A stretch of DNA of 19,655 bases from the IMG/VR virus record IMGVR_UViG_3300029577_000167, positions 1 through 19,655 of that record. One strand, given 5' to 3'. This document shows, one piece after another, positions 7,924 to 19,655 of the stretch. Numbering within the stretch: position 1 is the stretch's first letter; the number at the start of each line of letters is the position of its first letter. The stretch comes from a virus. Its lineage: Duplodnaviria > Heunggongvirae > Uroviricota > Caudoviricetes. The translations under genes and the position numbers were made by a program. The notes under the pieces were generated by a model that saw nothing but the letters and a program-made list of their open reading frames with translations, was not told the origin of the DNA and searched no databases.

Positions 7924-8550
7924 ATGGCGGGAATAATTACCTGGAAAGTTGATATCATATACCCGCTTGTATTTCAAAATGGAATGGATGTAATGGAAAT
8001 CGATACTTTAGAAAAAAAATCAGTTAAAAACCTCTACGCGTGGCTTATAGCAATACTGCCGTTTGTTGTCAGCGTCCCCCCTGCTGAGTACGACAATTAC
8101 GTTATGGTGATTTCGTTCGTCATTGGGCTTGGACTGCTGGTCGCCGATCGCATGAATTTGACTGAGGCAGGCTATGAGCCACCATCATTCTTATGTGGGT
8201 TCTTTATCCCCCCTGTGTATCTCTGGAAACGAGCGACGGTTCTTGGAAGTAACCGACTGCTGTTTATCGTATGGATTGTTGCCTTTGCTGCATCATTTTT
8301 CGTGTATAGCTTCAACGCAGATTCAGCGCTTGAAGAAGCTGCTTGCCCTATAGTTACCACTATTCTGAAAGAAAATAACGGTTCAGAAGCATCTAAATGC
8401 ATGAAGGTAACAATTCAGGACAAAGTGACGGACAAGTTCTACAAAGCCACGGCTACACTGGATAACGGTAATGACATTAACATCACTATCGAAATGATCG
8501 GTGACGAGAATTTCTACGTTCGCGTGCCTAATTACTACCTAAACGACTAA
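7924..8550 (+). CDS. predicted membrane protein (about 3 TM segments; start uncertain, alternatives 7984/7993)
   Basis: Hydrophobic segments LYAWLIAILPFVVSV, VMVISFVIGLGLLVA, LLFIVWIVAFAASFFVY; soluble C-terminal region. Confidence 0.5.
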   Translation: MAGIITWKVDIIYPLVFQNGMDVMEIDTLEKKSVKNLYAWLIAILPFVVSVPPAEYDNYVMVISFVIGLGLLVADRMNLTEAGYEPPSFLCGFFIPPVYLWKRATVLGSNRLLFIVWIVAFAASFFVYSFNADSALEEAACPIVTTILKENNGSEASKCMKVTIQDKVTDKFYKATATLDNGNDINITIEMIGDENFYVRVPNYYLND

Positions 8551-8987
8551 CGGCTGCAACTCGTTGACATTGGCGGTCACAAATTGAGGATTTCTATAAG
8601 AGTCCGTTGATCGCCACTTCCCCCACCTCTCCAACCTACCCCAGCCCAGGGGTGACAAGGCATTTAAGCCAATTACACCCATAAGAAAACAAATAAATAA
8701 CACGTCAACGAAAAGTCAACGCTTTCCTCTGATTTGGTCTAAAAAGTTGACGTTTTCGCAAGCCATCTCTTATACCCAAAATCCTGCGCACCAGAATCCA
8801 TCTCCCTGCGACCAAAACGTCAAAAACGACTCGTGATATCACTCAAAAACAGAAGCGCTCAGAAGCGCTCCCGTTGCGTTATATTGGGCATCTAAACAAG
8901 TTGTTTTCAGGCATAAGAAAACAAGTTAACAACCCCCACAGGAAACCCAGAGACGCCATTACCCACAATCCCGGAAACACCCACCTC

Positions 8988-9073
8988 TTCCTGTCAGACT
9001 ACCGAAAAGACCCACCTCATTGCCCCAGGCTACAGACCACCCACCTAATATTCCCAGGCAACCGAGAACGCGG
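8988..9073 (+). repeat. three tandem 28-31-bp C/A-rich repeats (core CAGRCWACMGA...CCCACCT)
   Basis: Units 8988-9018, 9019-9046, 9047-9073; paralogous triplet at 12989-13074. Confidence 0.7.
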
Positions 9074-9646
9074 TTCGCACGCGCAAACCCCGATACGTCA
9101 TTACCCAATACACGGAGAAGAACAGCCAGAACGAAACCCCGGACAAACCCAGACAAGAACAGGAGCCGTCACAATCTCGTTTACCCACCATTACCCCGAA
9201 AGAGAGCGCAAATTCCTGAATAGCAGGGAACGCCATTACTTCATATGCGGAGAACAACTAAAGCGCCCTACTGCCATTACCCACACTTTCATCATTTCAC
9301 GTAAACGAAGAGAAAAGCGCACCTGCCATTACTCCATACACGGAGAAGAACACTCACCAAAACGACGAGAACAACCCAGACGAAAACACAGAGAAGAACC
9401 ACCTCAAGAAGAACGAAACCACATATGCCGGTAGAAAGAACAAACCACCCATTTCACCCAAAGGAATACTCGCCGTATAGAGCGTTATCAGAGGGAAGGT
9501 TTATGCCCACATAAGAGAGAAAATTCGTGGGAGGTATAAGTGGGAAGGGAAGGAGGGGTATCGCCACTTTTTCCGCATAAATTCAAGCCATAGTTTTCAT
9601 CCCCCGTAACGTCCCTTTCCACCCCTTCGGTCAGCCTTCGGGCCAT

Positions 9647-13632: not shown

Positions 13633-13677
13633 CTGAGAAGAGGGCCAGAAACGGCCCTTTCTCTATAGCCACCAGCT

Positions 13678-13818
13678 GCCGCAGGGAAATTTTCAGAAAC
13701 GGCGAGGAACGCATTCATGAGCCGACGGGAAACGGCCAAGATTTTTTCGGGAAACGGCGGGGGTCGCCTTTATGTAGAAAACTGAGCGGGAGAAACCCGG
13801 AATCGCGCCAGAAATTGC
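13678..13818 (+). repeat. second cluster of GGGAAACGG-type repeats, about 22-bp period
   Basis: GCCGCAGGGAAATTTTC 13678, CAGAAACGGCG 13694, CGACGGGAAACGGCC 13723, TTCGGGAAACGGCGG 13747, GCGGGAGAAACCCGG 13785, CGCCAGAAATTGCG 13805. Confidence 0.6.
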
Positions 13819-14231
13819 GTAGCGGCGCTGGGGTAGCGCTGGTGGGGGTTTCAGCCCCTGGGCCATCCAGATAGCTTTCGCTATGTGATTATGTGAATCC
13901 GTGGGTAAATCACTGTAAGCGCGTACACGTTGCCCAACGTGGCAATCATATGCGAGCGGATACAAAACAACACAAAGAGCCGATCCGCGCCGACAAATAA
14001 ACGCGGATCACATAGCAAGACTAAAAGCCAATGATTAACCATACTCTATAGCGCAATATAACGCGTTTTAAGCGCGTTAATGTGTTAAGTAATGTGTATG
14101 TACTAACAAGGATATAAAAGCGCGTCTATGGCGTTATTTTGGTGCTTATTTTTATGTTGTTGGAGCGAGTTAAAGACAATAAAAAACGCGCTAATGATGG
14201 CGCGTTATGGTGGGAGTATTGGAAACGAAAA

Positions 14232-14250
14232 AAGCGCCCATAGTGGGCGC
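14232..14250 (-). terminator. 19-bp perfect palindrome AGCGCCCATAGTGGGCGCT, terminator for gene 14257-14487
   Basis: Flanked by AAAAAA on the plus strand (a U-run on the minus-strand transcript); identical copy at 14507-14525. Confidence 0.6.
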
Positions 14251-14256
14251 TCGATT

Positions 14257-14487
14257 TTATTTGTGTAAACTAATTTTGAATCCCATTTCTACAAACGCTT
14301 TTAACATTAAAAATATATCAGCGTCATTCACGTCTGCTTTTTTTCGCTCCTGGTCGTTCAATAAGTCAATTTTGCGCGTTGTTTCATTTATAAACTCGAC
14401 TGCGCGCCCAGCGATCCCAGCGATCCCAGCGATGCGATTAACATAATATTCATTATGGACGTTAACGCCAGCGATAAGAACAAACAT
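14257..14487 (-). CDS. hypothetical small protein (76 aa) containing IAG-IAG-IAG from a 9-bp tandem repeat
   Basis: AAGGAG RBS 8 nt upstream on the minus strand; low-GC region. Confidence 0.5.
   Translation of the reverse strand: MFVLIAGVNVHNEYYVNRIAGIAGIAGRAVEFINETTRKIDLLNDQERKKADVNDADIFLMLKAFVEMGFKISLHK
14407..14433. repeat. perfect 3x tandem repeat of CCCAGCGAT (in frame inside ORF 14257-14487)
   Basis: Units at 14407-14415, 14416-14424, 14425-14433. Confidence 0.9.
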
Positions 14488-14506
14488 GATTAAGCTCCTT
14501 AAAACT

Positions 14507-14525
14507 AGCGCCCATAGTGGGCGCT
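14507..14525 (-). terminator. second copy of 19-bp palindrome AGCGCCCATAGTGGGCGCT, terminator for gene 14538-15188
   Basis: Identical to 14232-14250; lies 13 bp past the stop of the 216-aa gene. Confidence 0.55.
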
Positions 14526-18430: not shown

Positions 18431-19318
18431 ATGTATTGTATCAAAAATATGGATGTGAAAATTACGATTCTACAGGTGGAAGTCGCGAACCTGCGTCCGA
18501 ACCCCTGGAATACCAACTCCGTTGGGGCGCAAAACTTCGAAAAACTGAAAGGTTCCATCGAAAAGTTGGGCTTTTTTAAGCCAATTCTGGCGCGAGAGCT
18601 GGACGGCGGCATTTTTGAAATTCTCGGTGGCGAACATCGCTGGCGTGCCGCGATGGAGCAGGGCATTTCAACGGTTCCCGTCATCTCCGTGGGCAAAATT
18701 AACGACCTGGTGGCCAAACAGATGTCCCTCGTCGACAACGAGCGCTACGGCGAAGACGATCAGGTCGCTTTGCAGCGCTTAATCGAAGAAATCCAGTCTG
18801 AAATCGACTACCGGTTGTCCGATATCGCCCCGTATGACGACGAAATGGCGGCAACACTCGCCAAAGCATCCGTTATCGATCTTGAAGCGCTGGAAGCGCT
18901 CTCCCGTGGCGATGACGAGCCGGTCGATGAGGACAAACGCGAGAAAACCGAGCGAGTCGGCGCTGAACACCAGACGATGCGCTTCAAGGTGACGTTTGAT
19001 GCGTCAGATCGGGTCATCGAACAGAAGACTCTCGAAACCCATGAGGTCGTCGAGTTTGAGCTGTCGAGTGTGTTCGACCTGATGGGCGTGCAGCTGCCGT
19101 ACCGCCAGATCATCAAAAACACATGCCCGTGGAGATACCGCGGACCAGAGTGCGGCTACACCGGTCCGTACTTCGACAAAAACAACCAGCAAACCACCAT
19201 GTCAGGAGCGGATTGCTGCACGAAACGTTACGACTCATGCAACGCACGGCGCAACTACTTTGCCAATGGCGTAATCCACTTTGGCGGGTTCATTGGGGCA
19301 ACGCGTTATGGGCAATAG
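18431..19318 (+). CDS. ParB-like N-terminal domain protein with C-terminal lambda gpL-like cysteine module
   Basis: N-terminus LRPNPWNTN...ILARELDGGIFEILGGEHRWRAAMEQGISTVPVI...VDNERYGED fits the ParB/Srx fold (GxxRxxA); C-terminus NTCPWRYRGPECGYTGP...CCTKRYDSC...FGGF parallels the lambda minor tail protein L C-terminus (NTCTWTYRGDECGYSGP...CSKCLSGC...FGGF) as recalled. Start uncertain (18431 or 18449). Confidence 0.75.
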   Translation: MYCIKNMDVKITILQVEVANLRPNPWNTNSVGAQNFEKLKGSIEKLGFFKPILARELDGGIFEILGGEHRWRAAMEQGISTVPVISVGKINDLVAKQMSLVDNERYGEDDQVALQRLIEEIQSEIDYRLSDIAPYDDEMAATLAKASVIDLEALEALSRGDDEPVDEDKREKTERVGAEHQTMRFKVTFDASDRVIEQKTLETHEVVEFELSSVFDLMGVQLPYRQIIKNTCPWRYRGPECGYTGPYFDKNNQQTTMSGADCCTKRYDSCNARRNYFANGVIHFGGFIGATRYGQ

Positions 19319-19655
19319 AGTATTCCCGGAGCTTGGTTCGGACGTTATGCAGGAAATCTATCTGACAGCCATTAAACGTTATTGGTGCTCATACGCACTC
19401 GGTTGCGATTGGCTCACATGGACACACCATCACCGTTAACGCTGCTGGTAACGCGGAAAACACCGTCAAAAACATCGCATTTAACTATATTGTGAGGCTT
19501 GCATGATTAATCTCATTCTTTCTGCTCCAGTAAAAGAAATGACTGAAGCATTTAAGCGAGTATTCGCAAATGCAGACAGGTAATGCTGCCAACTTACTGA
19601 TTTAGTGTATGATGGTGTTTTTGAGGTGCTCCAGTGGCTTCTGTTTCTATCAGCT

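Follow-up and report, generated by a model that had tools for sequence, protein, structure and literature searches.

Slipped-strand mispairing of short sequence repeats is reportedly accounted for by the model of Levinson and Gutman, and is said to have been reviewed by Zhou, Aertsen and Michiels in 2014. In-frame tandem-repeat switching has reportedly been described for the PenA beta-lactamase, whose substrate spectrum it changes (Yi et al. 2014, PLoS Genet), and contingency loci, in which simple sequence repeats cause phase variation, are said to go back to Moxon et al. 1994. Replication-slippage hot spots have also been found in the repressor of a Roseobacter phage-plasmid, where it is mainly frameshifting homopolymer changes that inactivate the C1-type repressor and lead to lytic growth (PMC10090143).

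The locus described here lies in a stretch of viral DNA of 19,655 nucleotides, referred to below as the window, and comprises the following features.

14257 to 14487, minus strand: gene for a 76-aa protein of phrog_1585 (a phage protein family without assigned function), with a predicted ferredoxin-like beta-alpha-beta-beta-alpha-alpha-beta fold
14407 to 14433, minus strand: perfect tandem repeat, three copies of ATCGCTGGG on the coding strand, seen with Tandem Repeats Finder and in the sequence itself; a slippage-prone tract
14338 to 14344, minus strand: run of seven A (A7) on the coding strand, within codons R-K-K; a second slippage-prone site
14309 to 14313, minus strand: run of five T (T5) on the coding strand, a homopolymer in the 76-aa gene
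14495 to 14500, minus strand: ribosome binding site AAGGAG, 7 nt upstream of the ATG, read from the sequence
14232 to 14252, minus strand: intrinsic terminator hairpin (GAGCGCCCACTATGGGCGCTT then TTTTCGTTTC) directly after the stop codon, from a terminator scan
14507 to 14525, no strand assigned: the hairpin in a second copy (AGCGCCCATAGTGGGCGCT), located between the ribosome binding site and the 216-aa gene upstream

The original prediction described a perfect, GC-rich 9-bp repeat, present three times in an AT-rich segment and encoding IAG-IAG-IAG in a 76-aa minus-strand ORF, and all of this was borne out. The top strand reads (CCCAGCGAT)x3 with 100% identical units, and Tandem Repeats Finder reports a period of 9, 3.0 copies, 100% matches and the consensus CCCAGCGAT. 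On the coding strand the array specifies residues 19-27, and the unit has a GC content of 67%, compared with 0.39 for positions 14001-14500. By chance, a perfect 27-nt array of three 9-nt units would be expected about 3e-7 times in 19.7 kb. A repeat-family scan detected no other arranged copies of the unit near the array, and a Chi site or a DnaA box within the 9-nt unit was ruled out by sequence inspection. The unit ATCGCTGGG is also found, as perfect tandem arrays of 4-6 copies, in high-GC bacteria that are unrelated (L062-L076; Nannocystaceae, Actinomycetota, Streptomyces and Paraburkholderia) that have no homology to the 76-aa gene, and there it is an independent, coincidental occurrence of the same unit.

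The array has the properties of a coding VNTR or SSR: the units are identical and arranged head to tail, the unit length is a multiple of 3 and lies within a genuine CDS, whole units are gained or lost among close relatives, and in the PLSDB records instability is confined to the pure repeat. It differs from typical members of this class in being very short (three units, range 1-4, about 4% variant records) and in being a homogenised conserved structural motif instead of a low-complexity linker or a surface-protein repeat. As judged from the alleles compared below, the IAG array is a genuine coding tandem-repeat polymorphism, apparently generated by replication slippage. It resembles PenA in that a short repeat is duplicated or deleted in frame within a structured protein, a loop or helix region is altered and the change is in principle reversible; for PenA, unlike the IAG variants, phenotype and selection have reportedly been demonstrated. 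The likeness to the Roseobacter case is that a small gene in the regulatory region of a phage-plasmid contains short repeats at which mutations concentrate, but the 76-aa gene is no recognisable repressor and the repeat changes are in frame.

The minus-strand ORF is a real gene, since it has a ribosome binding site and a terminator, matches the phrog_1585 profile over its whole length (E 1.5e-36; residues 1-76 align with profile positions 1-75 of 75) and shows the codon-position bias of a coding sequence, the variable sites among 27 distinct alleles being distributed over codon positions 1/2/3 as 20/11/41. A plus-strand ORF at 14207-14446, reading PAIPAIPAM, was considered and rejected as spurious because the commonest allele of the locus has a stop codon inside the repeat. 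Searches with the 76-aa protein gave no Pfam match at E <= 0.1, no meaningful NCBIfam match, no PADLOC assignment and nothing below E 0.3 among PDB sequences, and none of its homologues carries a name in the sources searched.

The gene is bracketed by a 24-nt direct repeat (92% identical), one hairpin copy lying on either side. Within this repeat the 17-nt palindrome GCGCCCATAGTGGGCGC occurs in identical form at 14234-14250 and 14508-14524, and the downstream copy is the terminator of the 76-aa gene. Most E. coli relatives (L052, L053, L059-L061) have a 67-aa gene between the 216-aa and the 76-aa gene, which is absent from the window; together with the hairpin pair, this suggests a cassette-like gain or loss at the hairpins. 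Downstream, between the 76-aa gene and a convergent 160-aa gene, there are approximately 620 nt (13633-14256) without conserved ORF. Four or five terminator-like hairpins lie in this interval (9 were counted over the 2 kb scanned vs 1.9 expected), and Rfam detected no known RNA in the window, including this interval.

SSU5-like phage-plasmids occur widely in E. coli and Klebsiella, with resistance genes as a frequent cargo. The gene region matches non-mobilizable IncFIB plasmids of about 100-115 kb from Escherichia, Klebsiella, Salmonella and Yersinia, as well as the phages SSU5, Cyrano and CMS-2020a, and the 341-nt region around the 76-aa gene is 100% identical to the E. coli plasmid NZ_CP110979.1. 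These matches identify the window as part of an SSU5-like phage-plasmid of E. coli. The genes neighbouring the 76-aa gene encode a phrog_1513 protein, a Flag1_repress-type regulator, a lipoprotein-like protein and a DEAD-box helicase. The 76-aa gene was found in 255-258 PLSDB plasmids (Escherichia approximately 210, Klebsiella 43), and 240 of the 5426 complete E. coli genomes carry it on plasmids. It was not detectable at the DNA level in Yersinia plasmids, and is therefore not a plague typing locus of the kind used for VNTR typing of Yersinia pestis pMT1.

Slippage at the array had been predicted to yield in-frame length variants, and a comparison of copy number across related sequences had been proposed as the check. 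Copy number proved not to be invariant: relatives carry one, two, three or four units, all in frame, the variants being spread over at least six allele backgrounds. In the closest example, CP057419 (98.9% identical over 1.5 kb), the gene is identical except for one missing unit. Protein homologues of 70, 73, 76 and 79 aa correspond to one, two, three and four (I/Y)AG units, respectively. Among the 255 PLSDB records with the gene, searched with a query specific for the two-unit form, nine have two units (six sister plasmids from one farm study, CP088502, AP027577 and the Klebsiella plasmid AP023149), one has four (Klebsiella CP052393) and the remainder three. Copy variants are thus rare (10/255, about 4%), and roughly 96% of the records keep three units. 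Also recovered as DNA were a one-unit allele, an allele of four units with YAG at its end and one reading IAG-YAG; the one-unit allele is present on 13 contigs from different samples in three flank backgrounds, and several two-unit protein clusters comprise 9-18 contigs. Every repeat variant leaves the reading frame intact, and the indels are always exact multiples of 9. More than four units were not found for this gene in any collection: scans of metagenomes and genomes for at least four perfect units hit only unrelated high-GC organisms, and a scan of viral contigs for the same hit none.

The flanks of the variant alleles indicate when the changes occurred. Alleles with one, two or four units differ from three-unit neighbours by 0-12 mismatches in 3-6 kb of flank, in some cases by only 0-1. 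The two-unit allele L031 and the three-unit allele L025 differ at one position in 6000 nt of flank and nowhere in the gene; CP088502 (two units) has one mismatch in 3184 nt to AP027538 (three units), and AP027577 (two units) and AP027538 have a common upstream ISKpn26 insertion. Between L002 (two units) and the window there are 12 mismatches and one gap in 5271 nt, with none in the gene. The four-unit CP052393 and the three-unit CP052409 show no mismatches over 3000 nt upstream and the gene, and neither do L051 (one unit) and L005 (three units) over 3000 nt upstream. At least six distinct variant allele sequences were observed, and each of them needs its own event. On these comparisons the copy-number changes are recent and repeated; some variant alleles common to several backgrounds could stem from recombination instead of repeated mutation.

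Slippage is known to depend on repeat purity. The commonest allele of the gene is imperfect, ATCGCTGGG-ATCGCTGGT-TACGCTGGG, encoding IAG-IAG-YAG. When the 255 PLSDB records were divided with a 39-nt query for the perfect array, 74 were of the perfect class (about 64 with three units, nine with two and one with four), four had one mismatch and 177 were imperfect. Copy variants were restricted to perfect alleles, with 10/74 in the perfect class vs 0/181 among the imperfect records (Fisher p = 2.7e-6, the records being phylogenetically non-independent). Counted as 4-5 independent events, the probability that all would fall in the perfect class by chance is 0.002-0.007. This distribution in PLSDB fits the purity dependence of slippage; outside PLSDB, in larger databases, variants derived from imperfect alleles exist (L052 and L053).

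Taking the alleles together, the perfect array of the window is, on sequence grounds, a recent homogenised derivative with Ile in place of a conserved aromatic residue, and the perfect allele has arisen on gene backgrounds of the E. coli type as well as of the Klebsiella type. L052 has four units and ends in YAG (ATCGCTGGG ATCGCTGGG ATCGCTGGT TACGCTGGG). Removal of TTACGCTGG from it would give the perfect three-unit array, which makes L052 a plausible intermediate, and since such a four-unit form exists we infer one 9-bp gain and one 9-bp loss as the homogenisation route. Point changes or recombination are also possible, because a one-mismatch allele exists (L043, ATCGCTGGG ATCGCTGGT ATCGCTGGG), which suggests an alternative route to the perfect array by substitution or recombination.

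The motif itself is much older than the perfect array. A profile search of 1.8 billion representative proteins returned relatives of 74-87 aa with 27-44% identity, nearly all of the distant ones carrying IAGIAG[YF]A[GAS]S at the repeat position. Since xAG-xAG-[Y/F]A is kept in such distant homologues of other phages, the xAG-xAG-[Y/F]AG motif underlying the array must be old. G21, A23 and G24 are nearly invariant, and the family as a whole conserves the length at the repeat to within one residue, so that the one-, two- and four-unit alleles depart from a conserved length. Distant homologues are located in early regions of unrelated phages (L054 5001-5225, L056 5001-5225 and L058 5001-5249): in L054 the homologue opens an operon that diverges from a cro-like gene and the replication genes, in another phage it follows a primase, and in L058 its neighbours are Lar and an N6/N4 methyltransferase. 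From this placement the family may act early, in an interaction with the host.

An AlphaFold model built with close homologues only was unusable (pLDDT 42) and was superseded by one based on a diverse alignment (pLDDT 92.8, pTM 0.79). The latter predicts a strand at 2-6, a helix at 13-23, strands at 30-34 and 37-41, helices at 45-51 and 55-67 and a strand at 71-75. The repeat would form approximately the last turn of helix 1 together with the loop leading into strand 2, which is the block of lowest confidence (mean pLDDT 87). In this model, three or six residues fewer in the crossover helix and loop should strain the fold. Among viral structures, Foldseek found nothing beyond weak similarity to uncharacterised proteins (best E 0.02). 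The predicted structure has the beta-alpha-beta-beta-alpha-beta arrangement of the ACT domain (Pfam PF01842 and relatives), and no sequence-profile match to that domain was obtained in the Pfam, NCBIfam and PDB sequence searches; the likeness is therefore one of fold only. In ACT domains small ligands bind at the loop between strand 1 and helix 1; the family has a conserved G7/N9/N12 loop.

The 76-aa gene contains two further runs in which length changes were seen. Changes in A7 truncate the protein (L033 has A6); truncated protein clusters end in ERKKQT, ERKKSRRE or ERKSRRERR followed by a stop, and a compensated form of 75 aa contains DQSEKADV. In NZ_AP022542 the T5 run is shortened to T4. 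Some of the truncated A7/T5 variants come from assemblies of uncertain quality, and these length variants could be either real inactivating slippage or sequencing errors. Span differences of +/-1 nt in complete E. coli genomes were considered as A7 changes and rejected: two of the three checked were intact and the third was a change from T5 to T4. Truncations arise only from the separate A7 and T5 runs.

The array, a coding tandem repeat carried by a phage-plasmid of the SSU5 type, is in our view likely to act as a hot spot of replication slippage, with variants that are neutral to harmful and do not serve a programmed switch. In most relatives the old, conserved motif is specified by an imperfect DNA repeat, and in the lineage of the window the third unit was homogenised to ATCGCTGGG, leaving three identical units. 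During replication of such a perfect repeat the nascent and template strands may misalign by one or two units, with a gain or loss of 9 or 18 bp, and the resulting in-frame one-, two- and four-unit alleles would make the end of helix 1 and its connecting loop to strand 2 shorter or longer. Slippage as the mechanism is inferred from the pattern of the changes. That the variants are by-products, probably neutral to harmful and presumably without adaptive value, is suggested by the family-wide conservation of length and by their being rare and recent. The occurrence of the one-unit allele on 13 contigs in three backgrounds and of two-unit clusters on 9-18 contigs shows that some variants persist, and this counts against the "harmful" part of the statement.

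The alternative that survives best, although we regard it as improbable, is an adaptive contingency locus, in which reversible gain and loss of IAG units would tune or switch the small protein and create useful heterogeneity among phage-plasmids. Several observations are in keeping with it: copy number has changed repeatedly, recently and on several backgrounds, the perfect allele is present in two gene backgrounds, the A7 run is a second slippage-prone tract in the same gene with truncating variants, distant homologues lie in early phage regions near anti-restriction-type genes (L058), and, by analogy, repeat slippage is reported to drive lifestyle switches in another phage-plasmid (PMC10090143). 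Like contingency loci, the array is a repeat inside a gene of a host-interacting mobile element in which a homopolymer gives frameshift variants. However, the classical loci have long tracts with frameshifting units that turn surface or restriction-modification genes on and off, whereas the IAG unit is in frame and the tract is short: three units, with an observed range of 1-4, fall below the many units, or the homopolymer of about 8 or more, that mark such loci. In-frame changes provide no on/off switch; the ORFs of the repeat variants are intact, and neither an expression switch nor an altered known interaction determinant was seen. Moreover, about 96% of the records have the three units that match the length conserved in distant relatives, and in most of the family the motif is encoded by an imperfect, stable sequence.

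A more elaborate version of the adaptive reading, in which the IAG array and A7 act as a two-site switch, is less probable still. By analogy with the repressor slippage mutations that control lysis in another phage-plasmid, it would have the array reversibly tune (one to four units), and frameshifts in A7 shut off, a small ACT-like early protein, with heritable heterogeneity in host interaction or lifestyle as the outcome.

That the copy-number differences are sequencing or assembly artefacts is very unlikely. Short repeats and homopolymers can be assembled wrongly, and some A7/T5 truncations stem from assemblies of uncertain quality, but a 27-nt array lies well inside a single read on any platform, the indels are exact multiples of 9, the one-unit allele comes from different samples, and the variants recur in independent complete assemblies, the two-unit form being shared by six RHB27 isolates, each sequenced independently, and by complete plasmids of Korean, Ecuadorian and Japanese origin. 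We give equally little credence to the proposal that the units are a DNA-level protein-binding array, iteron- or operator-like, overlapping the coding region by chance: direct repeats spaced by 9 nt do resemble binding-site arrays and the window has probable 21-nt iterons beside its Rep3 initiator, but the units are internal to a constrained CDS and not in a non-coding control region with conserved DNA words, no other arranged copy is nearby, and the third unit has diverged in 177/255 records while the peptide motif is kept, also in distant homologues, so that it is the peptide and not the DNA word that is conserved.

The slippage hot spot, as we read it, offers a clean natural example of how homogenisation of an imperfect repeat to a perfect one destabilises a conserved protein motif. 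In practice the locus is a cheap and informative length marker for sub-typing SSU5-like phage-plasmids, although its practical value is limited. As the most valuable by-product, an unannotated family of small phage proteins with a confidently predicted fold can be defined (approximately 75 aa, an xAG-xAG-[Y/F] motif, a predicted ferredoxin-like fold), unnamed in the sources searched and present in early regions of several phage types. If length variants did alter the behaviour of the phage-plasmid, the locus would be a case of in-frame contingency variation in a mobile element, a direction in which the present data do not point.

Some observations concern the element outside the 76-aa gene. 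The minus-strand ORF at 1111-2166 is a Rep3-type initiator gene (Rep3_N, Rep3_C), adjoined by 21-nt repeat arrays at 2254-2325 and 2633-2708 (3.4 and 3.6 copies) that are most likely the iterons of the plasmid replicon. The region 8501-9500 is strongly skewed (GC skew about -0.27, AT skew up to +0.47), and an imperfect repeat of 24-nt period at 9338-9399 (ACACAGAGAAGAACACACACCAAA, 2.6 copies) overlaps the ORF 8874-9434, which has no Pfam match. At the other end, the plus-strand ORF at 18431-19318 is a fusion of the N-terminal domain of ParB with the C-terminal half of the phage minor tail protein L; homology to phage-plasmids is lost at about 19015, and an IS1-like end occupies 19579-19655. 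The fused ORF looks like a deletion or rearrangement junction near 19015, so that the element is probably a defective derivative of a phage-plasmid.
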